Positions 132-33,109 of a stretch of 64,000 nt of DNA are shown here, one piece after another. The position numbers were made by a program, and so were the translations under genes. Numbering within the stretch: the first letter of the stretch is position 1; the number at the start of each line of letters is the position of its first letter. Under the pieces are notes generated by a model. The model had not been told where the DNA came from. It made no database searches and saw only the letters and a program-made list of their open reading frames with translations. The DNA is from Trypanosoma brucei (taxonomy: Eukaryota): positions 1,088,001 through 1,152,000 of the forward strand of contig CP000066.1 in the NCBI GenBank assembly GCA_000002445.1, given 5' to 3'.

Positions 132-1199
132 ATGACCTCAGTGCCGGGTGTGAACAATGCTGAGCAACGCATACTTGCAAGTTTGGCGTTGGCTGGGCAG
201 GGTGCGCTGTTACTCGCAACACTGCAGCAGGACCTCGGGCTTCACCACCGCACAATGGCTGCAGCGTTGCGGGGCTTGATGGAAGGCGGGCGGGTGGTTC
301 TGCGCCATGGGAACCGCGAGGGTGATATGTACGTTGCACTCGTGAACAGCATGCCAGAGGGGCCCTCACTGGTACTTGACGCCATACGTGCCAGTGGGAA
401 CAGCGGCATTGACCAGGCTGCGCTCTGTAGTTCCCTGCGCTTGCCTAAGGGGGAGATTATTAAATCGTTGCAGATGCTGCTATCACAGAAGCGTATTAAG
501 GAGCGTCGCTGCTTTTCCAACCGTGCAAAACGCATCTACCTCCTATTCGAGTTTGAGCCAAGTGACGAAGTGACTGGCGGGACATTCTATGGCGGAGAAG
601 ACTCCCGTGAAATGGACATAGGTTTTGTGGACGAAATGCGGCGGCGCATTATGTTACTTGTGGCTCAGCGGCATTCCGTCTCCTTGGAACAGATTACGCA
701 GCATTTGCAGGAGGCGCGCGGCGGCAGCTCTTCTGCTGATGTGAATGCCACAGCAGGGGGTACGGTCGTGATGACAACATCTCCCAACGGCACGGTGGCA
801 ACGTTACTGGGCGACAGTACTGGAAGTTGTAGTGGGGGGGGAAGTGTGGGGGCGGGCTGTGTTAAACGAATTTCTCAGCGCGATGCGCAGTTGCTCGTGC
901 AGACGTTAGTACTTGATGGTTTACTCGATTGCGTAACGCCCTCACCTGCCGTTCCCGCGCAGTACCAATTGGCCACGGGTCGGAATGTAATGAGGCACTT
1001 TTCGGCCGTGCCCACCGCTGCCGGCGCCGGCTCCGGGACGAAGTGGGTGCCGGCGCCCGTTTCACAGCCGAGTGCGTGGGCGATGCCGGCTGTCGGTCTT
1101 CCTTGCATGGGTTGTGCGCAGCTTCATGTTTGTACGGCAAGTGGCAACGGTGTGGTAAACCCACGCAACTGCGCCTACCTCAAGGAGTGGATGTCGTGA
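132..1199 (+). CDS. RPC34: DNA-directed RNA polymerase III subunit C34 (RPC6/POLR3F family)
   Basis: The 355-aa ORF has a central block 'KRIYLLFEFEPSDEVTGGTFYGGED' matching the conserved POLR3F region 'KKVYMLYNLQPDRSVTGGAWYSDQD'. Its C-terminus 'LPCMGCAQLHVCTASGNGVVNPRNCAYLKEWMS' matches the Fe-S cysteine cluster of RPC34/POLR3F ('APCGLCPVFDDC..GGEISPSNCIYMTEWL'). The comparison was recalled from memory, not searched. Confidence 0.85.
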   Translation: MTSVPGVNNAEQRILASLALAGQGALLLATLQQDLGLHHRTMAAALRGLMEGGRVVLRHGNREGDMYVALVNSMPEGPSLVLDAIRASGNSGIDQAALCSSLRLPKGEIIKSLQMLLSQKRIKERRCFSNRAKRIYLLFEFEPSDEVTGGTFYGGEDSREMDIGFVDEMRRRIMLLVAQRHSVSLEQITQHLQEARGGSSSADVNATAGGTVVMTTSPNGTVATLLGDSTGSCSGGGSVGAGCVKRISQRDAQLLVQTLVLDGLLDCVTPSPAVPAQYQLATGRNVMRHFSAVPTAAGAGSGTKWVPAPVSQPSAWAMPAVGLPCMGCAQLHVCTASGNGVVNPRNCAYLKEWMS

Positions 1200-1495
1200 C
1201 GGATCTTCCCTTCTTCTTTCTTCGCCGGATCACGCAGTAGATCTGTGCATGAGTGACTATATCCGTACAGCGAGAAAACTGCACACACCGGGGTGGTTGA
1301 GATGCAGCCCCACCATCACTTGGCATACCGCTGTTGAGGGCTCCGAGGGTGCAGGCGCTTCTGCCGTTTGCGGTCAGTGAACTTTTTCTGCATATACCAC
1401 GAGACGCACTGTATTTCCATTAAGCTTTGTTAACCGCTTTCCGTCCACGAGATTCGCCTCTCGCGAGATGTCGGCCTGCTCTTGGCACTGTCATG

Positions 1496-1600
1496 GTTCC
1501 TTGTGTTGTTATCTTCTTCTTCAGGCCACTGGTTACATTTTTGCCCATTTGTTTGCGTCTTTTTCTCATACTCTTCCGTTGCTACACATTTGCTTTATAC
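1496..1600 (+). promoter_or_regulatory. polypyrimidine tract with AG dinucleotides; probable trans-splicing acceptor region upstream of the kinase gene
   Basis: A T/C-rich run 'ttccttgtgttgttatcttcttcttcag...tctttttctcatactcttccgttgc' lies just upstream of the first in-frame ATG. This is the typical kinetoplastid arrangement of a splice-acceptor tract followed by AG. Confidence 0.4.
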
Positions 1601-1618
1601 CGCCATGAAGGGAGGAGG

Positions 1619-2761
1619 ATGGTTATTTGGTTTTCCGCTGGTGATGGTGTGGGCTTTCCCACCCCAACACCATGGGAAATTCAACCCCCACGGGGCTTAA
1701 CCTCCGCTGATGGTTGCCGAGGTGGCCTGAGGGATGGTGGGGAGCCGGCTGTAATCTCCCGTCAACAGCGACAACAAAAGCCTTCTCGGCATCAACAACA
1801 GCATCATTGTGTGAGACAGCCGAAACCGAAGGTTGTGATCCAGCAGAGTGATCTGCGTGATGAGCAATTCCAGCGGCTGAGCGTGCTGGGGGAGGGTTCG
1901 TACTCTGTTGTGGTTGCCGCCCGGCACCTCCCTTCACGTCAAGTCGTTGCGCTGAAAGAACTGTCGCGACAGCGGCTCCGTGATGCTAAGTTAGAGACTC
2001 AGCTGCAGTGGGAGATCAATCTCCACCGAACTTTGCGGCACCCCAATATTGTGCGTTTGCTCAGCTATTACATAACTCCGCGAAGTGTCGTGCTTGTGCT
2101 GGAACTATGTAGGGGTGGGTCGCTGCTGCGGAGGCTTCAGGCGACGGCGGAGAGACGATTTGACGAGGGCCGGGCGACACGTTATATTCGACATGTTGCT
2201 CAGGCACTGGCATATCTTCACGAACACGGCATTGTTCACCGTGACCTAAAGCCGGGAAATATTCTCGTCGACGCCAGAGGTGTAGCACGGCTTGCTGACT
2301 TCGGCTGGAGTAAGGGTCTTGCCGGCTCTGCAGCCGCTGCTGTGATAACAAACGGGTATGATGCGTCTGAAGTGGCGCCACGCTGCGCGGCGGGTGAAAC
2401 CGACGCATGTAGTGAGACGGAGGACGGCCACGGGAGGCTGACAGTGTGTGGGACGCTTGATTATATGCCACCAGAACTTTTGGGCGGCACGCCATGCTCC
2501 TACAAGGCTGATATGTGGTCGCTGGGTGCACTCTTGGTGGAAATACTGTCCGGACAACCGCCCTTTTACCGCACGTCTCAGCAGGAGACGTTACAGGCTA
2601 TTCAAGACGAGGGCCCGCAGCTAGATGTTGATGGTAGTGTCCTTTCACCACTTGCCCGTGATCTCGCCTTGCAGTTGCTGCAGAAAGACCCCAACGTGCG
2701 CCCGACCGCTGCCGAGGTGCTGCAGCATCCGTGGTTACGGGGAAAACGTCCTCGCGTGTGA
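1619..2761 (+). CDS. Aurora-like serine/threonine protein kinase
   Basis: The track ORF runs 1427–2761, but its first 64 codons pass through a polypyrimidine tract, so the first plausible ATG is at 1619. Kinase motifs are present: GEGSYSVV (Gly-loop), VALK, HRDLKPGNILVD, DFGWS, GTLDYMPPE and the Aurora-typical 'SGQPPFYRTSQQETLQAI'. It may be an AUK2-type orthologue, but that is inference from gene neighbourhood only. Confidence 0.8.
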   Translation: MVIWFSAGDGVGFPTPTPWEIQPPRGLTSADGCRGGLRDGGEPAVISRQQRQQKPSRHQQQHHCVRQPKPKVVIQQSDLRDEQFQRLSVLGEGSYSVVVAARHLPSRQVVALKELSRQRLRDAKLETQLQWEINLHRTLRHPNIVRLLSYYITPRSVVLVLELCRGGSLLRRLQATAERRFDEGRATRYIRHVAQALAYLHEHGIVHRDLKPGNILVDARGVARLADFGWSKGLAGSAAAAVITNGYDASEVAPRCAAGETDACSETEDGHGRLTVCGTLDYMPPELLGGTPCSYKADMWSLGALLVEILSGQPPFYRTSQQETLQAIQDEGPQLDVDGSVLSPLARDLALQLLQKDPNVRPTAAEVLQHPWLRGKRPRV

Positions 2762-3895
2762 GGTGAAGTATATATGTTTATTAATTCATACACACGCACA
2801 TATATATATAAATATATATATGTGCGTGTGTATGTGTGTGTACCTTTACTCCCATCATGTAATCACAGACAGGCAGATGCGGTCATTCAGTTATGGGAAC
2901 GTAGGTATTTGTATGGGTGCACACCTGGAGAGGACATTGGGAGGGGGAGGGGGAGGGGTCACGCGTGGGCTCTGGTTTAAGTACGTATTTGTCCAGTCGT
3001 CGTGGTCTTTGCTGTAATTTGAAATGGCAGCGCGTTTGCCATCATTACACGTACTGCCGTTGCTGCCTTCCTCAATTTGTCATATGTGCCACCAGGGGTT
3101 TTCAAAATCTATCGGGGCCTTTCCATTTCTTAGTGTATTTTTACTGATTTCGCCTTTTTTTTTTCATTGGCCCGCTTTTTGTTTTTGTTTTTTTGTTGTG
3201 GGTTTTGGTGGCTCTGCGTGTTGCTTACGCACACAAATTTGTAATGTAAAGAGGTTGTGCATAACAGTGGATACACGCCATATTTCCCTCCATGCTTCTC
3301 TTCTGTGTCCATATGTTTGTTTGTTTGTTTGTTTTTAGTTGTTATCACCTTTACATGGCCATTCAACGGGCGTAACCAGGGCCGGTGTGTAGTGGGTCGC
3401 CCCCTTTCTCACTCTCTGTCATTATTATTGTGTATATTTTGCACATTTTGTACTTTATCATGGTTCGTTTTAATATCTCTTTCATTCCCTTGTTTCATTA
3501 CCTAGTGTGTGCATCTCTCTCTGTGTATGTCTGTGTGTGTCTGTCTTTGTGTAATTTGTGCCTCCTCTTTTATCTAAAATAATATATATATATCTTTTCA
3601 CCTTTTTTTTTGGTTGACAGCGTCGGGTTGTTGTCAACAGCTTTCGCTGCGCAGGGTTTTCGCTGCCTTAACCCTGACGCTGCCGCCTCCTATTCTTTCT
3701 GCTTTAGCGGGCCTCTGCTGTGTTTGACATCAGTGTTTTGGGCCTCTTTTTCCTTTTGTGTTTTTTTAAGGAGTGTTTGTGTGTGTGTGTGGGGGGGGGG
3801 GCACTTTTTTCCTCAGAGTGAATCGCATTTTTTGTCTGTCCTAAACATATGTGCTGCGGGCTCGACATGTTCATGTCTTTACCATCGCTTTCAAT

Positions 3896-3924
3896 ATTCC
3901 TTTTTTTTTCCCCCTCTCCTGTAG
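3896..3924 (+). promoter_or_regulatory. polypyrimidine tract plus AG; probable splice acceptor for RRM protein A
   Basis: The run 'cctttttttttccccctctcctgtag' ends in AG at 3923–3924. The first downstream ATG in the long ORF frame that is free of the pyrimidine tract is at 4097. Confidence 0.4.
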
Positions 3925-4096
3925 CAACGCTTCAGTGAGTCGTTCGCACGTTATCTTTACGTTACAGAGCAAATTAACAATCAAGCGTGCCTTCACTAAA
4001 AGGAGAAAAAAAAGAACAATAAAGGAAGTAACTTACAGCGACATTATTACCCCTATTATTATAATCTCTGCACGAATTACGCGGTACCAAAAGCAC

Positions 4097-5377
4097 ATGT
4101 CCCAGGAAGGGGTTCATCCTTATTCATCTCAAAGTAACGCCGCTCCCCTTCCCATATGTCCTACCAGCCCATACGAGTGGGATATTTCTTCAGGAACTCA
4201 TGATTCCGCTGGAGAAATGATGTCTTTGAGCATCTCTCGAGAATCTCCACCGTGCCCACGACGGCATGGAAGGCGATCGGATCGGACGCAACCGCGGGGA
4301 CCCTTTGTGAAGCTACCGGAAAGCAAATTAACACCAAACGAATGCCAAAGCAAAACGAACCTAATTGTACGTAATCTTTCCAATCGCGTGGATGAAGCGG
4401 TGCTTAAGCAAATCTTTTCGCCATATGGAGAAATTCTTTCTGCGGCTGTAATGCGAAATATTCATACGGGTGACAGTCTCGGAACGGCTTTTGTGCGTTT
4501 CGCCACAACAGAACAGGCGCGTGCGGCTCTGGTGGGTTGTCATGGGCGAGTGGTTTGTGGCCGTGTGCTGTCGGTTCAATGGGCGAAGAGGCAACACGAT
4601 GGCACTCCCGTAGGCGAGGCCCGAAAGAAAATTGTGAAGTTATTCATACGTAACATTCCTTTGGATGTGGGACCTGAAGATGTGCAACGTCTCTTTGAAC
4701 GTTTCGGTACTGTGGAGAGCGTATCACTGCACAAAGACACTGCTGCTGCAACTCCCACTACTGACAACAACCGACCCCAACGCCGCATTGCATTTGTGAC
4801 ATTTACGGAATCTGGTGTTGCTGATCGTGCAGCTGAGGCTGTACACAACACTCGTCCCTTCCCATCTCATGGTTCCGTCCCATTAATGGTAAAACTTGCA
4901 GAAGATCATTCGGAGCGCCGGCTCGCTGCTGCCGCTGCTGTGGCTGGTGGAGGTTCGGGGCATAACTCCCGTCGAAGACCGGAAAATCATCAGTCAAATT
5001 CCACCTCATCCCTAACTGCAAGTTGCGTTGGAGACATGACTCCAACAATTTCCGATGCGGGTCGCTTTAGCGCAGCGTCGGTTCATGTTGCTGTTCCCGA
5101 CTCACCTGAGGCTTCCCTAATAAATAACTTGCCATTGCCACGAGGCGGTGTAAAGCAACAAAGTCAACCGAGAGAAGCGGAGCGGTCTCAGCTCCCACTT
5201 GCTGCTGTGCTCGATATTTCTTTACTTTCGTGTTGCTCAGCACTTGCAGCGGAGGGGCTTCCACACATGTCGCCGGAAACGTCGAGTGTCAGCGGAAGTG
5301 ACCGCCAATGGGCGCGGTGTTATGTGCATGATCCATACAATCCGAGCCGTTCCCGCCAATACTTGGATGAAAAGTAG
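4097..5377 (+). CDS. RNA-binding protein with two RRM domains (paralog A)
   Basis: The track ORF is 3851–5377, and the probable start is 'MSQEGVHPY' at 4097. RRM1 carries RNP2 'NLIVRNL' and RNP1 'GTAFVRF'. RRM2 carries 'KLFIRNIP' and 'RIAFVTF'. It is paralogous to the ORFs at 9682 and 22465. Confidence 0.75.
   Translation: MSQEGVHPYSSQSNAAPLPICPTSPYEWDISSGTHDSAGEMMSLSISRESPPCPRRHGRRSDRTQPRGPFVKLPESKLTPNECQSKTNLIVRNLSNRVDEAVLKQIFSPYGEILSAAVMRNIHTGDSLGTAFVRFATTEQARAALVGCHGRVVCGRVLSVQWAKRQHDGTPVGEARKKIVKLFIRNIPLDVGPEDVQRLFERFGTVESVSLHKDTAAATPTTDNNRPQRRIAFVTFTESGVADRAAEAVHNTRPFPSHGSVPLMVKLAEDHSERRLAAAAAVAGGGSGHNSRRRPENHQSNSTSSLTASCVGDMTPTISDAGRFSAASVHVAVPDSPEASLINNLPLPRGGVKQQSQPREAERSQLPLAAVLDISLLSCCSALAAEGLPHMSPETSSVSGSDRQWARCYVHDPYNPSRSRQYLDEK
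4387..4969 (+). repeat. 583-bp segment near-identical to 22569–23151 (gene-conversion tract, copy 1)
   Basis: The encoded peptide is identical to the copy at 22569–23151 from VDEAVLKQ through GGGSGHNS, except for one residue (N versus S, nucleotide 4770 a versus 22952 g). The antisense ORFs 4576–4851 and 22758–23033 are also identical. The flanks on both sides are unrelated. Confidence 0.9.
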
Positions 5378-6845
5378 TGTTTTGTACAGATGGTTAACGC
5401 GTATTATGTGTATTTGTTTTGTTTCCTTCTTTTTATTTTGCTCATGTCAGTTTATTTATTCTTTTTTTCCCCCCTCCCCCTTCCATTCTCCCTTTTTTTT
5501 TCTGTTGTTGGTATTCTTTTAATTGGTCCAACTTTTTTTCTCGTCCGCCATGTGTGTGTGTGTGTGTGTATGTGTGTTTTGTTTTTGTTTTTGTCTCCAC
5601 TGTATTTTGTATTTTCCTTCCTTCCTTCACCACACTTCTTTTTTTTTTTGTTGTCGACCACTATCTGTATTTATTTTATATCCTCATGTGTTTGTGCTTT
5701 TGCTTTGTTGTATATCCTAATATATATATATATATATAATATACGTTAACTTTATTATTATTATTATTTTACGTTATTTATTTATTATCCTCCGATTGAG
5801 CTCGTGTCTTCCCGTTTCTCTGTATTTACACATTCTTCTTTTTTTTTTCCCCCTTTCCCTCTCCTTTGCGGTTACACTTGTGTTTATTTGCTTCATTTAT
5901 TTATTCGGTTTATTTTCTCCTGGTTCGCACGTGTACTGTTTTTCTTTTTTTTTTCTTTTTTCTTCCTGTTGTGTCCCATCAGGGGGAAAATAAATTCAAT
6001 CTTATATTTTGTATTTGACTACTCTTCCCTTCTTTTTGAGTTTTTGTTTTTCTCAAATTTCTTATTTTAAAAAAAAAAGAAATAAAAAAAACAAATCTCT
6101 TTTTTTTTTTTTTGATACGTTTTTATCTCCGTGTTTATTCTTCATTTCCCAATTATTTGCTTTCCTCGGTTGTCACGGCGGTCCGCCGTCCCCTTTTTAT
6201 TTATTTGTTTTTTTCTTTTTCTTATAGACACGACTTATATTTGTGAATATATATATATATTTTTACACCTTCCTCTTGTTCTTTAGTCATTTATTTACTA
6301 TTAACTAATTAATTTCACTTTCTTTTGTTTAATTATTTTTTTAAATTTTATTTGTAGTTATTATTCCAATAAATATATAATATAAATAAATGCTTGAAGG
6401 AACTGAAGTGTGTCCAAGTGGAGACTTGTTTTTGTTTTTTTAATAAAAAGAGAAGAAGATATAGAAAGTAAAGGGATGAAACAAGAGGAAAAAAAAGGGG
6501 GAAAAGTAATGAAAGTTCCTTTTATTTTCATAATAATATATTTATATATATATATATATATTTATTTATTTATATATTTATGTATTGTTTGTTTTGTTTA
6601 TTTAATGGCAAACTTCACGTGTGCGTATGCGTGTAACGGGAGGGAAAACCAAAAAAGAGTGAAAAGGAAATATTTCTCCGTTTGTTTGTTTGTTTGTTTT
6701 TTGAGTTTCTGGTTTTAAAAGAAAAAAAGTAATACAAAACAAAATAAAGCAAAATAGCGAAATGACGAAATAAATGACATTTGTACGAAAGTCATGATAT
6801 TAATAAATATATATAATTAATCACTTCTAATGCCTGGTTTCCACC

Positions 6846-6878
6846 GTTATTATTATTATTATTATTATTATTGTTTCG
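6846..6878. repeat. (TTA)n microsatellite of about 11 units
   Basis: A ttattatta... run read directly from the sequence. Confidence 0.9.
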
Positions 6879-9681
6879 ATTGTTATGTTTCTTCCTTCCT
6901 TCTATTTTGTTTGTTTGTTCGTTTGTGTTCCGACTCAAATGAAGCGGGAGGGAAAACAACACAACACAAGACAAAACATAACGAAAAAAAAATGAAATGA
7001 AATAAAGTAAAGTAAAAGTATCGGAATCAAATGAGTTAAAACGCTGGGAGAATTAAAATGATTGAGCGAAAAGAGTAAAGGAAGAATATATATATATATA
7101 TATAGAAGGAGGAATAATGCATAAAGGAATTATGAGGTGGGGAATAAATAAATAAATAAATAAATAAATAAATGAGTGAATAAATGAATTATTGAGGGAA
7201 ATGTGGACACTACTCAGTTCATTTCCGTAACGATTCCGCGCACCTTTTTAATTTTATTATATTATTATTTATGTTGTTATTATTACTATTTTTATTATCG
7301 TTGCTTTCGTGATGCGGTCCTCTCTTCATTTCCCCTTCTTTTTTTCTCAAATAATAGTTATTTGTTGTTGTTGTTGTTTTTGCCTGTCCCCGTGTTCTTT
7401 CTTCTTGTTTCTTTTAAAAAATTTTATTCACCATTATATTAAAATTAAAATTATTATTATTATTATTGTAATATCATTATTTATTCGGTGTCTTGTTATG
7501 TCCCTCTCCCCGAAAAATAAATAATAAAAAGAAAAATAAATTAATATTTCAAATTCACGGCACTCGGAAGCGGAGGAGAAAAAGGAAATAAACAAACGAT
7601 AACAATAATAGAAAGAATAGAAATAATCAAAAATAAATTATTCATATTTATTTATTTATTCATTCATGTTAAATAATGACGAGAAGAAGTTGAAAATAAA
7701 AAAAAAATAAAACAAAAAAAAGAAAAAAGTAGAAGTAAATGAAAGGAAAACAAAAGACCGAAGTGATTTGTTTTATCTTATTTAGGGTGCTTTAAAACAT
7801 TTGGCCGACAAATACAATACGTGAAGTTATTTTCTCTTCTTTTTATTATATTTATTTTGCCTGAACCTTATTTGTTATTTAATCGCCCTTCTTTTTTCTT
7901 TTTTGTTTTTTGTTGTTGATAGCTCCTCTGAAATGAAAGAAAAAAAAACAAGATAAAAAAAAAGAAACATATATATATATATATATATATGAGCGGAAAT
8001 GTATGTTTTTTTTTTTTTTTTGGGGGGGGGTGTGTGAGGGAAAGTTTTCCCTTTCTTTCCTTTTTATTTTCTTTTCACAGTTGTTCCTCCTCACTCAAAA
8101 ACAAAACAACAACAACAAAAAAAAAAAACAGCTACTATTACTACTGCTAATTGTGTCACCATTTATTTCCTGCTATTATAATTGTTAAATGCTTCCGTTA
8201 TTATTATTGTTTTTATTATTATTGATATTAATATTATTGATTTTGTTATGGTTGAACTCCCTTAAGTACATGTGCTTCTCTTCATTTTCCCCCTCTTTTC
8301 TTCTCTTCTCTTTTCTTTTTTTTTTTCTTTCCTTTAAAAAAAAAAAATCATTTGTTTTGTTTTCTTCTTTACATATCAGCGAAGGAATTACAATAAATTA
8401 AACAGCAGCAGCGACATTTCCGTCCAGAGTTAAAAACAAAAAACAAAAACAAAACAACAACAAAGAAGGAAACTGAAGGAAGGAAGTGATCGAATTAAAG
8501 AAAGAAAAGGCAAAGGCAAAAACAAAACAAATAAAATAGTGCGAAAAGAAAGGGAAGGAAAGTGGAAAGGCAGAGAGAAAGAAAAAAAAAAGAACAAAAA
8601 AAAAAGGGAAAGAAGAGAGAGAGAGAGAGAAGAAAATAAATAAATAAAAGCGAAAGGGGAAAAGGGAATTCATTTACTTGTATTTGTACTTGTGTATTTA
8701 TAAGTAAATACAAAAGAAGAAAAAGGACCAAAAAAAAAAAAGATACAACAACAGCAGCACCCCCCCCCACACACACAAAAAAAAAAGAAGCGGAATAACA
8801 CGGACACACACAAAAGTGAAAGTGAGCGTGTCACGTGAGAAGCAACAAAAAAAAAAAGAAGAGCAAAAGGAGGGTCGGATAAGTCCTTGGGTGATTTTTT
8901 TTTTTTTTTTAAAGGAGAAAAAAGGTGCGGAAAAAAAAAAAGAAAATTAAAACAAAGGGTACGAGGCGCACTTTACCGGGCCACATTGCTTTTTTTTTTT
9001 TTCAATACCATATTTTGGTTGGTTGGTTGTTGTTGTTTTGTCTTGTGTTTCTTTTGCTCTTAAAGGGTGAGTGTAGTTGACACAACTGCAAACACAAGAA
9101 GGGAGAAGAAATAACATATACGCATTTAATAAAGGGAGACAAATACAGCAACCACCACAAAATAGCTGAAAAGGTTGCAAAGGAAGAGAGAGAGAGAGAG
9201 AAAAAAAAAACACCAACACCAACAACAACAACAACAACAAACGATCTGAGAAGTGACTGAAATCACTCGCAGCGGTTTTTGAGCGTGAGTGAACTTCACA
9301 ATACAGGCGAGAGGCAGCCGCACAGCCTCCTTTCACCCTTCACTCACGAGGGTTCCGTGAGGCAGTTAAGGAGCGTGACGAATTAATAAAAAAAAGAAAC
9401 AAGAAAAAAAAAAGAAGAGGAGGAGAAACAGCAACATCAGGTGATATAGCTGTGGGACTGTGAAGAGGAGGTTTCACACACAAGAGGGAGTGTGGTACCA
9501 AAACTATACATACAGATAAAAGCAAGTGCGCATAACCTTCAAGGGAATACGAGAGGGCGTTGTTTGTGTATTTGTTTGCGTTTTTGCGTGTGAGTTTGCG
9601 TGTGTGTGTGTCTGAGAGAGAATAGTAAAAAACAACAACAACAACAACAGCAACAAACAAACCCCAACTGCAGGGTGAGTC

Positions 9682-11463
9682 ATGGAAGTTCCTTTTGAAG
9701 AAGGGACGCAGTTGGTTCATGCAATTGAGCGGTCCCAGCAACGGATTTTGGATGCCTCAGCGGTGAGTGACGTGGAGACGGTACCACCGCCGACAACTAC
9801 TGCAAATGCAAATGCAACTGCTGCTGTTGCTGTTGCTCTTAAGGGTTTAGCCACCACATCTGCGCATGTGCCGCTGCCACTCTTTGGTTTGGATGATGAG
9901 GGTCGAAGTGGCAAAACGCCATTGAATAATGAAAGCGGTCCGGGAACGAGCAGTAGTGGAAGCCATAGCAGCAGCAGCAATGTTCCTGTTGCGAGTTTGC
10001 GAGCCGGTACCGCTGGTACTCCTACCGTCACCCCGGCTGCGGACTCCCGTGCGGAATCTCAAAGTAGGACAAATCTCTTTGTGAGCAATATTCCCCATTT
10101 GTTAGGGAAAAATGAGTTGGTAGATTTATTTTCGCCATATGGAGAAATTCTTTCTGCGGCTGTAATGCGAAATATTCATACGGGTGACAGTCTCGGAACG
10201 GCTTTTGTGCGTTTCGCCACAACAGAACAGGCACAGGCGGCGATGGAGGCTCTAACGGGTTATGTGCTGGAGGGCCGCTCGATGGTTGTTCAATGGGCGA
10301 AGAGGCAACACGACGACACTCCCGTAGGCGAGGCCCGAAAGAAAATTGTGAAGTTATTCGTACGTAACATTCCTTTGGATGTCAGTGACGCCGATCTAAC
10401 TGAAGTGTTCAGCGCGTTTGGTCCAGTGAAGGGCGTGTCAATACATAAAGACACCACGCCAAACGCCGGTCGCCACTTGGAACGTCGCATCGCCTTCATT
10501 ACGTTCCACACCGACGGAGTCGCTGAGAGGGCAGCTGAGGCCATCCACAACACTCGTCCCTTTCACAGTTGTGGAAAAATTCCCCTTATGGTGAAGCTTG
10601 CGGAGGATAACCCCAGACATGGACGCAGTCACAACGCACAAAGTGGCCGCAGCGCTTGGGGACGGAATGGCAACACAAATCAAAACAACGATGGCAGCGT
10701 CAGTCGCAGTAGTCCAAGTGGCAGCGTTAGAAGTAACAAGTCATTAGGGATATCGGGCCATGGTTCCGCGAGAGGGGATATTCGTGGACTCGGTATTGAC
10801 ACACCAGGTGGCCTTCCGGGACTTTTTTCGCTCGGAACCGATGCTTGCGGTTTCCCGGGAGGCGCTTTTGCCGTCTTTCCGACTATGATCCCACAGGGCG
10901 GTGTTTTTGTGCCTCAACCCGTTCTAAACGTTGGCGTAGGCGTAAATGGTCAGGCAATGGCACTGAGGACTCCAATGTTTTGGCATCAGGCCGGCTCCAC
11001 CATTCCGGTTGGTGTTATGGGCCAAAGTCAATCCGCAAATATGGGAGCCACAGGCGGCAATTGTTCACATCAGGGGTTTGCATCCGTTTCTGAGGGTTCA
11101 TCATCCGAGCAGCAGCGTGTGGACATCTTTTCGTCCTTTGCACAACCGCCGCCATTCCCCACAGATCCGTTAGCGGGTCTTGTAGATTCCACGGGGTTTT
11201 CGTTTACGGCTCCTCCTCCTCCTCCTCCTGCTCCTGCTCCTCTTTCTTCTTCTGCAGTGGAGGTCGGCCCGGTTGTAAAAGATGATGTGGAGCCAACGAT
11301 GTGTCCGCATCCGAGCAGTAGTGATGTGTATGACGCCGATTCATCATTATCGCTTGATTTTCTGGAGAATTTGGGCGCGGCGGAGTTGTGCCACGTGACG
11401 ACTCCGTCTGGTGATGAGGACCACCGCCTGCATGCCCCCGGCTCATTTGTGCCGTTTTTGTAA
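9682..11463 (+). CDS. RNA-binding protein with two RRM domains (paralog B) with long low-complexity C-terminal region
   Basis: The ORF is 593 aa. RRM1 reads 'NLFVSNIPHLLGKNELVDLFSPYGEILSAAVMRNIHTGDSLGTAFVRFATTEQA'. RRM2 reads 'KLFVRNIPLDVSDADL...RIAFITFHTDGVAERAAEA'. The C-terminus is rich in Ser, Gly and Pro. Confidence 0.8.
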   Translation: MEVPFEEGTQLVHAIERSQQRILDASAVSDVETVPPPTTTANANATAAVAVALKGLATTSAHVPLPLFGLDDEGRSGKTPLNNESGPGTSSSGSHSSSSNVPVASLRAGTAGTPTVTPAADSRAESQSRTNLFVSNIPHLLGKNELVDLFSPYGEILSAAVMRNIHTGDSLGTAFVRFATTEQAQAAMEALTGYVLEGRSMVVQWAKRQHDDTPVGEARKKIVKLFVRNIPLDVSDADLTEVFSAFGPVKGVSIHKDTTPNAGRHLERRIAFITFHTDGVAERAAEAIHNTRPFHSCGKIPLMVKLAEDNPRHGRSHNAQSGRSAWGRNGNTNQNNDGSVSRSSPSGSVRSNKSLGISGHGSARGDIRGLGIDTPGGLPGLFSLGTDACGFPGGAFAVFPTMIPQGGVFVPQPVLNVGVGVNGQAMALRTPMFWHQAGSTIPVGVMGQSQSANMGATGGNCSHQGFASVSEGSSSEQQRVDIFSSFAQPPPFPTDPLAGLVDSTGFSFTAPPPPPPAPAPLSSSAVEVGPVVKDDVEPTMCPHPSSSDVYDADSSLSLDFLENLGAAELCHVTTPSGDEDHRLHAPGSFVPFL

Positions 11464-12361
11464 CACACAGATGACTATAAAAGAATACGAAGGGTGTGTA
11501 TGTGTGTGGGTTACGAGTTTGTGTACCCTTCGTTCCATTTCGTTTCGCTCCGTTCCGTTTCTTCTCGTTTTCGTTTTCGTTTTTGTTTCGTTTTCGTTTT
11601 CGTTTTTGTTTTGTTTGTTTTTTTAATTTGGGGGACGGGGGATGGGAGGGGTTCCCACTTTTCGGAAACTTGTCTGCGTTCGTGCTTCTGTGTGCCTTTA
11701 GAAGAGGATCAAAAGGAGGAGGAGAGGAGTAGGAAGAAAGGGGGCAAATGATTTTTTTTTTTAAAAAAGAAAATAATAACAAGAGGGAAATGGCAGAGTG
11801 TACGGAGGGGAGTTATTGTACCCTTACTCACCTGTAAAAAAAAAAAAGAAATAGAAGAGTAAATAATAAAATGAAAAACAAAACAAAAAAAAACAACAAC
11901 AAAAGGAAAGGAAAGGAAAGGAAATGGATTCGGTGATTAGAACATAGTGAGCACAAATGGTTGGAGAAGAAAGTTCATAAAAAGAAGGTTTGCAAATGTG
12001 CGCGTTGTAGTGAATTTGGTGTACGTGTGTACGGCGGGGTGGGTTAGGGGTGGCAGGGAAGGAACAAGGAATGTTGTATATTTTTGTAATGAAAAATATA
12101 GTGAAACAAGAGGAATGTCACGCGTTTTTATTGTTATGTGCGCTTTATTATCACTGCTATTGTTATTGTTATCATTATTATTATTATTATTATTACTGTT
12201 ATTGTTATTGTTTTGTTGCTTACCAGAGAGATTTAATGAAGGATTCAGGTACGTGATTGATTGTGTGAAGAATATTGATGATGGATACGGATATGAATAT
12301 ATGAATATATGAATAATATTGTGATAATGATATACAGGACTGAAGTGTGTATGTGTGGAGA

Positions 12362-12392
<31 letters not shown>

Positions 12393-15300
12393 AGACAAGA
12401 GTTATGGGCGCAGGATGCGGGGAGATGTGCGCATTTAATGTGACCAATGAAAAAAAAGGAAAATGAAAATGAAAATATAATAATAATAAGAATAATGTTT
12501 TTCCCCCTTTTTTTAAAAAAGAAATGGAGTGTGAAATGAAAAGAATTAGAGCAGACACGGAAGAGAGTGAGGTAATGAAGCAGAGGAGGGAGATGAGTAG
12601 GAATAATAGAAAGGAATGCCGAAGCTGTGGGAAAGAGAGAGGCGAAAGAAACGAAGCGGAAAATAAAAAGAGGGATGTAACATATCCTTATGTAAATTAA
12701 TGGCTACTTCATTACCCTCAACTCTTTCTTCGATCCCTTTCCTCTCTTAACTCGTCACTTTATATTGTATTATTATTATTATTGATTATATTGTATTATC
12801 TTGTTTAATCTCTTGTGTCCCCCGTTCCGTTTTACCTTCCCACGACATTCAAATAAATTTTTCAATCGTTGACTTCTCGTTCCACCTTCTTTTCCTTCAT
12901 TTCATTTCATTTCACTTCATTTTCCTTTCCTTTCCTTTCCTGTTCTCTTTTTCTTTGCTCTTTTTTTCTTGTCTTTCTCTGTTCATTTCTTTTTCTTTTT
13001 ATCACTTGTTCCCCCCCGCGCGCGCTATTTACCTCCGTTTCCTCTCTTATTTTTGTTGTGTATGTTCGGGCTCTCTTTTTTTTTTCTTTTTTTTTTCTCG
13101 TTGTTTCTGTTCGATATTATTTGTTTTTGTTCTGTCGTGTTTTGTTCGGTGTTCTTTTTTTTTTTTTTTAAGTTTTAGTTTTTTGTTGTTGCGTGTGTTT
13201 TACCTTTTCCCCCATCATCTTGTTTTTTTCCCTGTCATTGTCTCTTGGGATCCGTTTTTGTTTCTGTTTCTCTATTGTTACTTTCCCGTTCATAGTGTAC
13301 GCTTTTCTTTCTTTTTCTTTAATGATAATAATAATAATTATTATTATTGTTTTTATTATATTAAATCAAACGATTCTTTTTCCCTCTTTCGTTTTTTTTT
13401 CAAACAAATTCCCAATACGGCAAAAATCCGGAAGAATGAAAGTAAAGGAATTAAAAAACAAAACAAAAAAAAACAAAAAAAAGCAAAGACGGGAGGAGGA
13501 ACGAGAACAAGAATAGACTTTTTTAAAACAAATGAATTGAACTGAAATGAATTCATATATATTCTCATTTTAAAGGAGGAAAACAACAAGGGAAAGAGGA
13601 AAAAAGAAAACTAATATTTATGATATGAAGGGAAATATTTCTCCCGTTTTGTTCGTTTTTCTCATGGGTGCATTCGAGCAAAATAAATGAGACAACTCAA
13701 GACGAAATAAAGTGAAAAAGAGAAGGAAAAAAAAAAAAGAAAAAGAACAACAAAGAAATGAGGGAATGAAGAAAATATCTCTCGGTCTTCCATTAGTTCA
13801 CTCACCACCTCCACTCATATAAAAAATATATATATATAAATAATTAATTAAATATATCAATATAAATTTATACATTTATTATTTTATTATTACTACTAAT
13901 ATTATTACAGTTATTATCATCATCATCATCATCACTATCATCATCATTATTGTTATTATTGTTCTTTTTTTTTCTTTATTGTTTATTGTTTTTAAAATTA
14001 TTATTATTATTATTATTATTGTTATTGTTGTTCATCGTAGTTGTGATGGCGGCAACAAATAATGAGTGGAGGTTGCATGGCCAAACTAAAAGGAAGAGGG
14101 AAACGAGGGGAAACGAGGAAAAGGAAAAAAAAAGAAAAAAGAAAAGAGTGAAATTAAATGAATTAAATGAAATGTATAATATATAATGTATAATCCACCA
14201 ATATTTTGTTTTTTTTGTTTTTGTTTTTGTTTTTTTGCCTTTGGTTTACTTGTGAAAGAAAGGAAAGAAAGACCAAACAAAATGAATTGAAGTAAATGGC
14301 AAAAAAAAAGAAAAAAAAGTAACAAAAGCAAAAGACAAAGGGGGAAAAAACAACAACAACAAAAAGGTGTGAGATTATACAAAATTGTATGTTCCTTTAA
14401 GAATTTGTGTTTGTTTGTGGTTTGTTTATTATTATTATTATTATTATAATTTTCATCGTGACTCATTACCGTTGAAAGTAGTCGTCCATTTTGACAAAGC
14501 GGAGAGGCGAAGGGGGAGTGGTGGTGGTGGTGGTGAAGTGGAGAAGTGGAGAAGTGGAGAGGGGGGGGGGAAAAAACAAAAGAAAAGAAGAAATTTTGTA
14601 TGAGAGAAAATCAAATTTAAAAACAAAAACAAAACAAAAAAAAACAAACAAAATGTATAAATATAAATAAAAGAAAAAGAAAAGAAAAAAAATGACATAT
14701 TGGGGAATTACACCACGTCAAGTGTACGAAAAAAGTGAAATTGAATTGAATTGAATGAGATAAGATGAGATGAGATGAAACGCAAAATGTACACACGTAA
14801 AAAAAGGGGGGGGAGGAAAAAGAAAAGAAAAGAAAATAATAATTCCTTTTTTTTAAAAAAAAAGGAGGAACTGAAGAAATATCGCCATGGGAGGAGAGAC
14901 GGTGACCGCTAAAGTGACCGATATGACACAAATAACAATTAAATAAAATGAGCGAATGAGCGCTTTCGTTTAGCAAAAAAAAAAAAAATAATAATAATGA
15001 TAATAATAATTAAAAGTGACGGGCTTTCGTTATTATTTCCAAGTGGCAGAAAAAAAAAAAGAAAAATAAAGGAAAGTGAAGAATATGTTGTGTGCGTGTG
15101 TTTTCTTTTTCTTTTTTTCTTTTTTTTTTTTCTCTCCTTCTCACAAATTAAAAGAAAAACAAAATAGTAATAAAAGAGAGAGAGAGTGAGTGAGTGAAGA
15201 AAGGAAGAAAGGAAGGAAAAAGAGGTAACAGAAAAAATGAAAAGGAAAAGAATAAAGGAGAATATACCTTTATGCAGAAATAAATAAATAAATAAATAAA

Positions 15301-15870
15301 TGTACACATTCATATACGTTATGGTCACATAAATTTAGAGAAGGATATGAAGAAGGAGGAGGAGGTAAAAAAAGAAAAAAAAATAAAGGAATGCAAAAAA
15401 AATAAAATATATAAATAAATATATATATATATACACAGTTCGAATGAAGATTAACAAGTGAAAAGTTGATGGGATTATGGAATTCCAAAAATAAATAAAA
15501 AAAAAGAGGAAAAATAAAATGGGGGGGAGGGAAGAGAGACCGGGTTACGCAATAATAATAATAATAATAATATTTTTTCCCTCCCTCTTTTCTATTTTCT
15601 TCTTCTTCTTTTTTCTTTTTTTCTTTTTGTGCCTCACACGTGTGTATTTATTTATATATGTGTTTATATTCCGTCTCATATCTTTTTCCCACCATCACTG
15701 CTATGGTTTTGATAGCGGAATTCAGCAGAAGATACAACACCAACACGTTGCATTTACACGGGCACATTTTTTTTTTTTTGCTTCTTCATATATTTTTACT
15801 CACGCGGTTTTTTTGTTGGTATATTTGGTAAAATGCCCCGGTGTTTTTATTGTTTTTTCTTGTTATTGCC

Positions 15871-15906
<36 letters not shown>

Positions 15907-16089
15907 GTGTTCGCTGCTTTTCCCTCCCAAACCGTAACGCCGTGTGTCATGTAAACAAGTGATTTTTGTTGTTTCCTTTTTTTCTTTTTCTTTTCCTTTT
16001 TTATTTTATTTTAATTTGATTAATTCTTCCTTTCTTTCCTATCAAAAACAAAACAAAACAGAAAATAAATAAAAACACATATACACATA

Positions 16090-16092
<3 letters not shown>

Positions 16093-16145
<53 letters not shown>
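16093..16145. repeat. (CA)n microsatellite of about 26 units
   Basis: An uninterrupted acacac... run read directly from the sequence. Confidence 0.95.
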
Positions 16146-16148
<3 letters not shown>

Positions 16149-16404
16149 GAATAAATAATAATAATAATAAAACAACCGTTCATTTGCCACCGTTAGCATA
16201 TTTTACTAACAACAGCATCATTTCAATAATATTAATATCAATAATAATAATAATAATAACGGTAGTAATGGTAACTATTATATTATCAATATTATTATTA
16301 CGTTATTATTGTTATGTTTATTTATTTATTTTGAATTGTTTTTGATATTATTATTATTATTGATATTATTGTTGTTGTTGTTCTTATGTTAATGAGATAT
16401 GAGG

Positions 16405-16410
<6 letters not shown>

Positions 16411-16455
<45 letters not shown>
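16411..16455. repeat. (TA)n microsatellite of about 22 units
   Basis: An uninterrupted tatata... run read directly from the sequence. Confidence 0.95.
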
Positions 16456-16458
<3 letters not shown>

Positions 16459-19400: not shown

Positions 19401-19570
19401 AAAGAGAAAAGGGAGAGAGAGAGAGAAAAAAAAAGAAAGAAAAAAATATATAAATATACACATAAATATATAAATAGTAGCAAAGGTTGAAAAGAAAACA
19501 ATAGCACCGTATCGAAGTCAAAAGGAAGTGAGTGAGTGAGTGAGTGCGTAAGAGGAAGGAGGAGAATAAA

Positions 19571-21223
19571 ATGCCTCCAAAACGCTCAAAAGGTGTAACA
19601 TTTAAACTCGTCCACCAGCCATATGATGACGCGGAGAACACCGGAGGGCGTAAAGCCATAATGGTGGAAGAGCGAATAGTGCGTCAGCATTTACCGGCAT
19701 CGGGTTCAGGACGCGGACGCCGTCAGCGGGATGATGATGACAGCTTTTGTGATGATGGAGGAGCCTCTATGTCAACTGTAAGTCGTTGGGCACAAGAATG
19801 GGATGAGACATCGGCACCAACTGAACGTAACGCAGGAATGTTAGAAGGTGAAGAGGATTACTTAAATAGGCACAACTTTCTTTTGGCACAGGACCCTGAT
19901 GATGATGATGATAATAATAATAATAATAAAAATAAAAATGATGAATGTGCTGATGATGGCGGCTATGAGGATATTAGTGATAATGACGGTGGTGCATGTG
20001 AAGGAGTTACTAAGAAGTCTAGAAGTGAAGCCGCTGACGGTGAGGAGGAAAGTAGTGACGATAAATTGTTTGATGACCAGGAGGAAGGTGAAGTAACGGA
20101 TGAGTTTCTGAGACAGTTGGTTTTTGGCGGAGAAGACGATGATTTGGATGTTGACAGGCGCCGATGTGGTGATGATGATGATGATGATGATGACGGCAAT
20201 GATGACGGAAGTACAAACCGTGACAACGTCCCGGCAAGTTTTGTGCCACATGACACGACACGGCGTGCGATTGACCGCCAGTTCACACAACTGATGCGTG
20301 AGTTCACCGTTGATGAGAGGTTAAATGACGCTTATACCGATGACCCGCGGACGCAAGGTGCGCTAGACGCTGACCAGTACCTCCGCGCTATGGAAGAGTT
20401 TGTCGTTGAGCGTGCCGGTATTGATTATAGAACTGCTGAGCCAATGCGAAATAAGGGCCTTATTCACCAGCTAAAGAGCATGGCATACGGCGTTCCAACC
20501 GACATGACGGCTTCGGGTGATGTAATCACAACGACAATTTTGCCTGACAAAAAAATACGTTTCGCAACGGAATTTAAACGGGAGACAGAGGAGATCCGGA
20601 GAGCCGCTCGGGAGCGTATATTGCGCCGTCAGGCTGAGGCTCAGAAGAACGCTGCGGACGGTGAAGTGAAAATAGGTCATGATAGCATGGGCGCTAGTGA
20701 AGAAATGGATGATGATTGTAATCACGATGATGGCACATTTCAGGTGAGGAATGCTGCAAAAGCGAATAACTCATCAGAATGTGGCAGCGAGTCGCAGGAG
20801 GAGGAGGAGGAGGGGGAAACATATGTTGTGCGGAGGATCGTAGATAAGTCCAACCGCCTTGATTGCGAGACAGTTTTATCAACTTACTCCACGTACTTCA
20901 ATCAACCTAACGTCATACGGGCCCCAGACGCGGGAAAGAAGCGGAAGGGTAAAAAAGTTACTCAACCGCACCGTGACAATAATGAGGGTGATGACATGTC
21001 GCAGGAGGTGCCGGACTTGAGCACGTCGGTGTTGTCCTTAGCGAAAGGAAAGAATGAATCGAAGGAGGAGAAAAAGATGCGAAAGCAGTTGGTAAAGGAT
21101 CTGAAGCGCGAACGCCGTGGGAAGAAGAAGGAACTTCGACAAGTGTACAAGACAATGGAGGCTGAAGAAGCCCGCCGTGTGAAGGAGTCGCAAACGGCGA
21201 GGAAGACATTGTCCTTCTTGTAA
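19571..21223 (+). CDS. LTV1: LTV1 homolog (pre-40S ribosome biogenesis/export factor), highly acidic
   Basis: The track ORF is 19544–21223, and the likely start is 'MPPKRSKGVTFKLVHQPYDD' at 19571. The N-terminus matches the LTV1 N-terminus ('...KKKAVSFHLVHRSQRDP'). The C-terminal blocks 'LDCETVLSTYSTYFNQPNVIRA' and 'KNESKEEKKMRKQLVKDLKRERRGKKKEL' match human LTV1 'WDCESICSTYSNLYNHPQLIKY' and 'KNESKEDKRARKQAIKEERKERRVEKK'. Long Asp/Glu runs are present. Confidence 0.8.
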   Translation: MPPKRSKGVTFKLVHQPYDDAENTGGRKAIMVEERIVRQHLPASGSGRGRRQRDDDDSFCDDGGASMSTVSRWAQEWDETSAPTERNAGMLEGEEDYLNRHNFLLAQDPDDDDDNNNNNKNKNDECADDGGYEDISDNDGGACEGVTKKSRSEAADGEEESSDDKLFDDQEEGEVTDEFLRQLVFGGEDDDLDVDRRRCGDDDDDDDDGNDDGSTNRDNVPASFVPHDTTRRAIDRQFTQLMREFTVDERLNDAYTDDPRTQGALDADQYLRAMEEFVVERAGIDYRTAEPMRNKGLIHQLKSMAYGVPTDMTASGDVITTTILPDKKIRFATEFKRETEEIRRAARERILRRQAEAQKNAADGEVKIGHDSMGASEEMDDDCNHDDGTFQVRNAAKANNSSECGSESQEEEEEGETYVVRRIVDKSNRLDCETVLSTYSTYFNQPNVIRAPDAGKKRKGKKVTQPHRDNNEGDDMSQEVPDLSTSVLSLAKGKNESKEEKKMRKQLVKDLKRERRGKKKELRQVYKTMEAEEARRVKESQTARKTLSFL

Positions 21224-22464: not shown

Positions 22465-23598
22465 ATGATGCCGTGCAAGTCATTTCCTCCGTCCTCTAAA
22501 TTATTGAGGCATCGGTCAAGCGAACTTTATAGCCGTGACAATTTATTCATGTGTAACTTATCGGCTGCCGTGGATGAAGCGGTGCTTAAGCAAATCTTTT
22601 CGCCATATGGAGAAATTCTTTCTGCGGCTGTAATGCGAAATATTCATACGGGTGACAGTCTCGGAACGGCTTTTGTGCGTTTCGCCACAACAGAACAGGC
22701 GCGTGCGGCTCTGGTGGGTTGTCATGGGCGAGTGGTTTGTGGCCGTGTGCTGTCGGTTCAATGGGCGAAGAGGCAACACGATGGCACTCCCGTAGGCGAG
22801 GCCCGAAAGAAAATTGTGAAGTTATTCATACGTAACATTCCTTTGGATGTGGGACCTGAAGATGTGCAACGTCTCTTTGAACGTTTCGGTACTGTGGAGA
22901 GCGTATCACTGCACAAAGACACTGCTGCTGCAACTCCCACTACTGACAACAGCCGACCCCAACGCCGCATTGCATTTGTGACATTTACGGAATCTGGTGT
23001 TGCTGATCGTGCAGCTGAGGCTGTACACAACACTCGTCCCTTCCCATCTCATGGTTCCGTCCCATTAATGGTAAAACTTGCAGAAGATCATTCGGAGCGC
23101 CGGCTCGCTGCTGCCGCTGCTGTGGCTGGTGGAGGTTCGGGGCATAACTCCTCATCATTTTGTGTTCCTCAGCCCCGTTTTGTTGGCCGACAGCAGCCAA
23201 AAGTTCTGCGCCCCCCATCGGGCGAACGTTTGCCCGTGCAACCGCTTTGTGTTTTGGGCTCGAAAGGAAGCGGCCCATCACCAATTCTCCGCTCTCCAAA
23301 TATTGTGGCAGCTACGCGAGTTGATGATTTTATGGATATTGCGGTTGGGCGTTGGAAAATGCCGGAACCCCTTTCTACTACAATAAACACATGTTGTACC
23401 GTTATGCCACAGGCTCCGGTTGGAACCAATGGTAAATTTTTTACCGTTTCAGGTAGTGGACTCTGCGCGGCATCGCGATCAGCCATAAGTTGTTCCATAT
23501 GTGAGAGCAAAAAAGGCATGAGGTACACTCATGAACCATACCGAAGCGTTGTGTGTAACCCCACTGGCATTCCGGTGCCGCCTTCACCAGTGGATTAA
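22465..23598 (+). CDS. RNA-binding protein with two RRM domains (paralog C); chimeric, with central 583 bp converted from paralog A
   Basis: The ORF is 377 aa. The N-terminus 'DNLFMCNLSAAVDEAV' is divergent but homologous to RNP2 of paralog A. Residues 34–226 are identical to paralog A. The C-terminal 150 aa are unique. Confidence 0.6.
   Translation: MMPCKSFPPSSKLLRHRSSELYSRDNLFMCNLSAAVDEAVLKQIFSPYGEILSAAVMRNIHTGDSLGTAFVRFATTEQARAALVGCHGRVVCGRVLSVQWAKRQHDGTPVGEARKKIVKLFIRNIPLDVGPEDVQRLFERFGTVESVSLHKDTAAATPTTDNSRPQRRIAFVTFTESGVADRAAEAVHNTRPFPSHGSVPLMVKLAEDHSERRLAAAAAVAGGGSGHNSSSFCVPQPRFVGRQQPKVLRPPSGERLPVQPLCVLGSKGSGPSPILRSPNIVAATRVDDFMDIAVGRWKMPEPLSTTINTCCTVMPQAPVGTNGKFFTVSGSGLCAASRSAISCSICESKKGMRYTHEPYRSVVCNPTGIPVPPSPVD
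22569..23151 (+). repeat. 583-bp segment near-identical to 4387–4969 (gene-conversion tract, copy 2)
   Basis: See the 4387–4969 entry; the offset between the two copies is 18182 bp. Confidence 0.9.
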
Positions 23599-32510: not shown

Positions 32511-33109
32511 GGTAAAAAACAAGCGAACAAACAAAAAGTAAAACCATGGGCAAAAAGAAAAAGAAAAGAAAAGGGTCCTGTTTTTGCTCTCTTTGTTGTT
32601 TATATCTGTGTGTTTGGGTTTTCTGTGGGGTTTCAACTGGGCTTCCCGAGTGATGCCGTGCCATACGTTTTTTTTTCTGCTGCCTGTTCGGCCCTGCCCA
32701 TTTGTTTTTTTTTTTGCAATTCGAACCGTACAGTGGGAGAATGTGTCACTTCCGTATATGTTGGAGTTGCCTCTTCTAGCGTGATGTAGTTGGTTTTGTA
32801 ACTGTGTGAATGCGCGCTTTTGAAACCGTAAACCGCTACCAAGCATATGCACATGCGTGTACAATTCCATTCGGTCTTTTTTGTTTCCATTTCTGATCCC
32901 AAAACGACGACTTCACTTATATTTTCCATCCCCCTTCTGACTTTTCCCTTTCCTTTTCCCTTTCCTTCCCCCCCCCAAAAAAATTAACCGAAAAAAAACA
33001 AAAAAAAAAGTTCTAAAAAGAAGGTGTGACGAAGGAAGGAGGTAAACCAGAAGCATATATTAAACTTGCGGTGGCCGCGCGTGCCAATTCCATCCATAAC
33101 GTCATTGGC

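Follow-up and report, generated by a model that had tools for sequence, protein, structure and literature searches.

A 64-kb window of chromosome 3 (1,653,225 bp) of Trypanosoma brucei brucei TREU927, the whole stretch of DNA analysed here, contains three genes for related RNA-binding proteins, DRBD6B, DRBD11 and DRBD6A (in the following paralogues A, B and C; coordinates are window positions), whose paired RNA recognition motifs (RRMs) form a mosaic of identical and diverged segments that very probably arose by repeated gene conversion between the copies. The genes lie on the same strand within one polycistronic unit, at spacings of 5.7 kb (A to B), 12.5 kb (B to C) and 18.2 kb (A to C). RRM_1 (PF00076) is matched twice in each of the three proteins (Pfam, E 1e-28 to 1e-31), RRM1 of A covering residues 89-158, and the A protein is 99.5% identical to its counterpart in T. 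b. equiperdum. An earlier reading of the DNA from its letters alone (the sequence-only reading) had suggested a DRBD10/DRBD11/LTV1/DRBD9 neighbourhood for this locus; it had the chromosome, the gene numbers 3930, 3940, 3950 and 3960, LTV1 and DRBD11 right, and the genes that it took for DRBD10 and DRBD9 are in fact DRBD6B and DRBD6A. The features are listed in Table 1.

Table 1. Genes, shared segments and motifs of the DRBD6B-DRBD11-DRBD6A locus (window positions)
Feature	Position	Strand	Description
Paralogue A, Tb927.3.3930, DRBD6B	4097..5377	+	426 aa, two RRMs, C-terminal HDPY; open reading frame and translation
Paralogue B, Tb927.3.3940, DRBD11	9682..11463	+	593 aa, two RRMs, HxPY motif absent; exact match to XP_843986 (TREU927)
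Paralogue C, Tb927.3.3960, DRBD6A	22465..23598	+	377 aa, two RRMs, C-terminal HEPY; exact match to XP_843988 (TREU927)
A/C tract, copy in A	4387..4969	+	583 nt, A residues 97-291; 582/583 identical to 22569-23151
A/C tract, copy in C	22569..23151	+	582/583 identical to 4387-4969
Sole difference within the A/C tract	4770 A vs 22952 G	+	Asn vs Ser
Patch 1 shared with B	A 4415-4518 = B 10129-10232 = C 22597-22700	+	FSPYGE...TTEQA, with RNP1 of RRM1; 104/104 identical
Patch 2 shared with B	A 4574-4668 = B 10288-10382 = C 22756-22850	+	VQWAKRQHD...NIPLDV: RRM1 end, linker, RRM2 beta1/RNP2; 92/95 identical
RRM1 beta1/RNP2 of A	4343..4386	+	CQSKTNLIVRNLSNR; homologous to B and C, outside all tracts, orthologue-specific
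RRM1 beta1/RNP2 of C	22525..22568	+	LYSRDNLFMCNLSAA; outside the tract
HDPY motif of A	5327..5338	+	MKT1-binding H(E/D/N/Q)PY class; outside the tract; in all A orthologues; from translation
HEPY motif of C	23530..23541	+	outside the tract
LTV1 homologue, Tb927.3.3950	19544..21223	+	between B and C; PDB sequence search matches human LTV1 (6g18_t), E=1.2e-6

The names DRBD6B and DRBD6A come from work in which both proteins were two-hybrid partners of MKT1 (PMC3985637), and the name DRBD11 from a study in which DRBD6A, tethered to a reporter, acted as an activator and DRBD11 was among the listed repressors (PMC4055773). A role in MKT1 binding has been assigned to the H(E/D/N/Q)PY motif (PMC3985637, PMC6597758), and the HDPY and HEPY motifs of A and C agree with those published in tabular form for 3930 and 3960 (PMC3985637). 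Across the proteins compared, H[EDNQ]PY stands about 15-20 residues from the C-terminus in 11 of 11 proteins of the A/C type and in 0 of 8 of the B type. Judged by this motif, A and C fit the class of MKT1-recruiting RNA-binding proteins, the binding itself being taken from the published two-hybrid work.

Two observations on the gene models stand apart from the mosaic. The open reading frame of A extends upstream of the ATG at 4097 through 3851-4096 to a GTG at 3851 (508 aa), and the exact 426-aa protein found no match in the protein collection, where the near-identical 426-aa protein of T. b. equiperdum was matched; the TREU927 annotation of A may start elsewhere, or the database entry may be absent. 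The length of B varies among strains of the T. brucei group (593, 594, 601 and 607 aa in the protein alignment), as an (Ala-Asn)n run close to the N-terminus (alignment columns 41-46) and a Pro/Ala-rich run around residue 520 (columns 520-532) have expanded or contracted.

The most conspicuous element of the mosaic is the 583-nt tract shared by A and C. The sequence-only reading had put its identity at about 99.8%, and a base-by-base comparison bears this out, with position 4770 and its counterpart as the only mismatch. Since RRM1 of A comprises residues 89-158 and the tract residues 97-291, the tract begins about 9 residues inside RRM1; it then covers the remainder of RRM1, the inter-RRM linker, RRM2 and 21 residues of the post-RRM2 linker up to GGGSGHNS. 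Only a few bases beyond either end, identity is down to background level. When each locus is compared by blastn together with over 1 kb of flank, the tract is the only A/C similarity, and there are no further copies of the 583-nt block in the window. A repeat search over 3.5-24.5 kb was dominated by intergenic low-complexity repeats and contained a single relevant family (D13), and direct base comparison was used.

Outside the tract, A and C had been described as unrelated. This holds at the level of blastn, but the 15 codons immediately upstream are homologous and encode beta1 of RRM1, and a homologous RY.H[DE]PY motif stands at the end of both tails. In the 45 homologous nucleotides just ahead of the tract, A and C show 26/45 differences, and synonymous divergence (dS) is saturated (not computable). 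This beta1/RNP2 element reads NLIVRNL in A, NLFVSNI in B (within residues 127-141) and NLFMCNL in C, and it retains an orthologue-specific signature across species, namely NLI[VL]R[NK]L for A, NLF[VI]SN[IF] for B and NLF[MIV][CR][NH]L for C. It is the one RNA-contacting element that lies outside the conversion tracts in every species examined. The earlier claim that the RNA-binding surface as such is homogenised therefore applies to the RRM core and has to be narrowed by RRM1 beta1/RNP2, which no tract includes. Its exclusion may reflect a selective barrier, or simply the limit of usable homology.

Paralogue B takes part in the mosaic through two shorter patches. Both had been noticed from the sequence, with coordinates that were off by up to 8 nt. 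A weaker stretch of 47 nt at 83% identity follows in B at 10516-10562. For the RRM core as a whole, protein identity between B and A is 65%, but it rises to 97% within the patches and drops to 47% elsewhere; the 60-70% that the sequence-only reading gave for the remainder is in fact the whole-core figure. In B of T. b. gambiense and T. b. equiperdum, patch 2 carries one extra difference (Val to Met), and the TREU927 state agrees with A and C.

We compared the loci of T. b. gambiense, T. theileri, T. melophagium, T. vivax and T. cruzi, with one genome for each non-brucei species. T. brucei (including T. b. gambiense), T. theileri and T. melophagium all have the genes in the order Rpc34, kinase, A, B, LTV1, C, zf-LYAR. 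In T. vivax, A, B and LTV1 keep this order without C, of which tblastn detects no remnant below E=0.2 between LTV1 and zf-LYAR (coordinates 11704-21704 of the fetched locus), and T. cruzi has B, LTV1 and C in order, with no A between the kinase and B (coordinates 3002-4143 of the fetched locus). It is conceivable that this differential loss, of C in T. vivax and of A in T. cruzi, came about through recombination between the paralogues. Across species, each orthologue group keeps its own N-terminal region, RRM1 beta1 and C-terminal end. The three paralogues are thus ancient and predate the species compared.

Against this background of old divergence, the cores of paralogues within one genome are far too similar. 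In protein-guided MAFFT alignments, codon-level difference tracks contain zero-difference runs between paralogues of one genome in T. brucei, T. vivax, T. theileri and T. melophagium, the longest extending over 194 codons (T. b. gambiense A/C), 112 (T. theileri A/C), 94 (T. melophagium A/C), 48 (T. melophagium B/C) and 39 (T. vivax A/B), whereas orthologues from different species differ over the full length of the core, by about 1 nt per codon. Nei-Gojobori estimates of dS give the same picture: 0.000 for the T. brucei A/C tract (507 nt), 0.15 for the patch-bearing segments of T. brucei A and B and 2.18 for the rest of their core, with saturation between orthologues of T. brucei and T. vivax or T. 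theileri. In a Sawyer-type permutation test on 338 variable sites, 10 of 10 within-genome paralogue pairs reached p<=1e-4, compared with p=0.016-0.999 in five between-species orthologue controls.

Segment distances and neighbour-joining trees show that the grouping switches along the gene. In RRM1 beta1, orthologues cluster together. In segments 1 (FSPYGE...TTEQA) and 3 (VQWAK...PLDV), the paralogues of each species cluster instead, which holds for T. brucei, T. vivax, T. theileri and T. melophagium, and segments 2, 4 and 5 are mixed, with a grouping that depends on the lineage. At the protein level, segment 2 of T. congolense C is identical to that species' own B in 18/18 residues and to T. 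brucei C in only 4/18, which indicates that the pair of donor and recipient is a different one in T. congolense. The process is not universal and varies among lineages: B and C of T. cruzi have no tracts and differ by about 1 nt per codon, and T. grayi shows no excess paralogue identity in a comparison at the protein level. As negative controls, these two species demonstrate that protein constraint alone does not yield nucleotide identity.

The same comparisons speak to the idea that purifying selection acts on the nucleotides themselves, so that some overlapping functional element (an antisense reading frame, a regulatory site or an RNA structure, for instance) would bar synonymous change. 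No synonymous site is exempt from the identity, and the antisense frames match as well, although the latter follows trivially from identical DNA. In the very segments that are homogenised within genomes, however, orthologues differ at 58-71 of 228 nt with saturated dS, B and C of T. cruzi differ by about 1 nt per codon, and both the identical segments and the paralogue partners change from species to species. Neither protein nor nucleotide constraint can explain the identity when orthologues, and T. cruzi B and C, differ throughout the core, and we give selection on an overlapping element virtually no credence.

A single recent event in the T. brucei lineage, be it a segmental replacement or a partial duplication by double crossover or template switch, would suffice for the A/C tract, which is common to all sampled subspecies; the B patches would then merely be slow-evolving sequence. 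This reading is strained by the patches themselves, whose dS of about 0.15 compares with 2.18 in the adjoining core segments and for which the permutation test is significant. Separate tracts with other edges and other partners occur, moreover, in T. vivax, T. theileri, T. melophagium and T. congolense. The sister species T. theileri and T. melophagium are particularly telling, as their orthologues are separated by a dS of 0.6-0.9 and yet each has its own within-genome identities. Together with a strain-specific B-type micro-tract in A of T. b. equiperdum, described next, this makes a one-off replacement very unlikely, and repeated conversion the better account.

Variation among T. brucei strains supports continuing exchange. 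The two copies of the A/C tract agree at 583/583 positions in T. b. gambiense DAL972. At position 4770, copy A has G in two assemblies, DAL972 and chromosome-level T. b. equiperdum, whereas TREU927 and T. equiperdum OVI have A; the mismatch is therefore a polymorphism of copy A that is younger than the tract. In T. b. equiperdum (GCA_003543875.1), A reads GCA CAG, which is the exact state of B, where the other A and C copies read GCG CGT. The three changes fall within a span of four nucleotides where patch 1 ends on its 3' side, and form a micro-tract that lengthens the identity between A and B. Whether tract boundaries differ between strains had been proposed as a check on the earlier claim of recent, repeated mosaic conversion. 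They do differ, and that claim is upheld by the dS contrast, the clustering of sites, the switch between segment trees, the independent recurrence in four other Trypanosoma species and these strain differences.

A perfect repeat of 583 nt is also a known assembly hazard, and a repeat that was collapsed or merged into a consensus in the TREU927 reference, or a mis-join there, could in principle mimic conversion. Such errors, or real deletions, do happen at this locus, as a T. equiperdum OVI contig joins the upstream flank of A to the downstream flank of C via the block. In TREU927, however, both contexts read in frame into orthologue-specific termini that match the syntenic A and C of other species, and the two copies are separated by one single-nucleotide polymorphism. 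The A context recurs in DAL972 and in chromosome-level T. b. equiperdum, there with its own private changes, and the C context in DAL972; analogous tracts are present in assemblies of T. vivax, T. theileri and T. melophagium from other projects. We therefore regard an artefact as extremely unlikely.

The OVI contig (CZPT02000499.1, assembly GCA_001457755.2) deserves a description of its own. It corresponds to window positions 1097-4969 followed by 22569-26602, the overlap being exactly the 583-nt block, and lacks 18,182 bp including B and LTV1. Its gene at 3001-4320 of the contig locus, which corresponds to 4097-4969 joined to 23152-23598, encodes a 439-aa 'RNA-binding protein' (SCU66091.1) that is an exact chimera of the 5' part of A and the 3' part of C. 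B from the same project is found on a separate 6.8-kb contig. An assembly collapse through the repeat is the most likely explanation of the chimera, the alternative being a heterozygous deletion by unequal crossover.

The pattern in the sequences, its statistics, its recurrence across species and its variation among strains were all observed directly, and they make it very probable that the double-RRM cores of A, B and C repeatedly overwrite one another by ectopic (interlocus) gene conversion that is confined to the RRM core. From these observations we infer a repair pathway as follows. A break or stalled fork in one copy would be repaired by homologous recombination with another copy as the template, most simply by RAD51-dependent synthesis-dependent strand annealing or a similar route without crossover, in which about 100-600 nt would be copied non-reciprocally. 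Tracts would begin and end only where the copies remain similar enough, that is, within the RRM core, which selection at the protein level presumably keeps alike. Each conversion would therefore ease the next one, and the mosaic would be sharp-edged because the fast-evolving N- and C-terminal tails, the untranslated regions and RRM1 beta1/RNP2 fall outside usable homology. Across all tracts, the 5' edges are found no more than about 9 codons past RRM1 beta1 and the 3' edges at the end of RRM2 (...KLAED), with the exception of the T. brucei A/C tract that reaches GGGSGHNS.

Gene order and intervening genes are intact at the locus, which argues against a single crossover; crossover products would delete B and/or LTV1 and have presumably been purged. 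In T. brucei, the latest large event probably linked A and C along 583 nt, no later than the split of the sampled subspecies. Smaller exchanges between A/C and B probably produced the patches of 104 and 95 nt, and at least one micro-tract is strain-specific.

Several points weigh against this interpretation. A double crossover gives the same end-state sequences as conversion, and the two cannot be formally distinguished. The direction of transfer likewise has to be deduced, and its hints conflict, as the 'CHG' motif is of the A type and the post-RRM2 linker resembles T. congolense C. The evidence for two copies in TREU927 comes from assemblies, and the DAL972 assembly was made with TREU927 as the template (PMC2854126) and is thus not fully independent. 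The permutation test and the neighbour-joining trees are simple custom implementations (not GENECONV) applied to short segments without bootstraps. The T. congolense comparison is at the protein level only, and that with chromosome-level T. b. equiperdum covers A and B. Finally, G+C content at third codon positions is 0.41 in the tract and 0.41-0.43 in the flanks; this lack of enrichment in the tracts means that there is no footprint of GC-biased conversion, which counts against conversion if such a footprint is expected.

The locus is a fresh example of a well-known process, interlocus gene conversion or concerted evolution. In T. brucei, partial gene conversion resulting in chimaeric copies has been described for 21 of 47 tandem arrays (Jackson 2007, BMC Evol Biol 7:54, PMC1855330). 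The DRBD genes share with these arrays the organism, presumably the recombination machinery, and the clustering of paralogues by species instead of orthology. The arrays, however, consist of head-to-tail, near-identical dosage copies, whereas the DRBD genes are spread over 19.5 kb, are separated by unrelated genes (including LTV1), differ in length, termini and reported activity, and are homogenised in their domain-coding core only. With copies 5.7 and 12.5 kb apart and identity limited to at most 583 nt of coding sequence, they do not form a tandem array of the dosage type, and the locus is absent from the main text of that study (PMC1855330).

A second likeness is to the dispersed beta-tubulin genes of Leishmania. 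Tubulin copies are functionally equivalent and homogenised over the whole coding sequence, whereas only a domain block is affected here; common to both cases is that kinetoplastid paralogues at different loci undergo concerted evolution of their coding sequences, as reported for the tubulin genes (PMC1533823). Segmental conversion of variant surface glycoprotein (VSG) genes, which is routine in T. brucei, resembles the DRBD case in the short-tract, homology-bounded and non-reciprocal copying between diverged paralogues that creates mosaics. VSG conversion is, however, subtelomeric, directed to expression sites and diversifying under immune selection, whereas the DRBD locus is a housekeeping locus in the chromosome core at which diversity is reduced. 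UBP1 and UBP2, two single-RRM proteins of trypanosomes encoded side by side, may have the same architecture, with almost the same RRM in both and unlike tails; our literature search returned no passage in support of this, and no conversion analysis of the pair is known to us.

We found no account of conversion at the DRBD locus in the searchable literature, an earlier mention in the original RRM catalogue (De Gaudenzi 2005) being possible. What distinguishes this locus is that dispersed and differentiated regulators exchange a domain block only, that one RNA-contacting strand is always excluded, and that the partners shift across at least five species. It thereby offers a clean multi-species case of domain-restricted concerted evolution in regulators instead of dosage genes.

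We infer the selective consequences in the same way. In T. brucei, two proteins with MKT1-binding activator tails and one that acts as a repressor when tethered have essentially one RNA-binding module in common, which predicts shared targets with opposite outcomes. It is tempting to see in this a 'shared reader, different effector' module that is selectively maintained, the alternative being that homogenisation is a neutral by-product, but we consider this doubtful. Should it nevertheless be true, conversion would keep the RNA-recognition cores of the activator-type HxPY proteins DRBD6A and DRBD6B and of the repressor-type DRBD11 in lock-step, the three proteins would compete for the same mRNAs with opposite outputs, beta1/RNP2 would provide paralogue-specific fine-tuning, and the antagonistic set would shift its target specificity jointly in each lineage. 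DRBD6 mRNA is reported to increase in salivary-gland forms and after heat shock (PMC5015846), and the module may for this reason matter for differentiation.

The homogenisation also has practical consequences. RNA interference fragments, probes, CRISPR guides, RNA-seq and RIT-seq reads and tryptic peptides derived from the core fail to separate the genes, and a proteomics study gives 3930, 3940 and 3960 as one protein group (PMC9896412). In at least one public assembly (T. equiperdum OVI), A and C are fused into a chimera through the repeat, and orthology or phylogeny derived from the RRM region of DRBD6B, DRBD11 and DRBD6A would mislead.

Among the neighbouring genes, a syntenic LTV1 gene is present in all species examined. 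The T. brucei reading frame, which as listed begins with GTG, has no Pfam match at E<=0.01, and its similarity to 6g18_t is confined to the C-terminal 130 residues or so; on these two grounds we call it a very divergent homologue. The intergenic regions 5400-9600 and 11500-19500 are very long and full of low-complexity repeats, namely (TA)n, (TTA)n, (AATA)n and poly-purine or poly-pyrimidine runs, and blastn of the loci with their flanks finds no intergenic repeat-rich sequence common to the paralogue loci. Farther downstream, where ARAGORN predicts no tRNA genes in 24000-40000, long open reading frames occupy the plus strand up to 32510 and the minus strand from 39210, which marks about 32500-39200 as a convergent strand-switch region between two polycistronic units.

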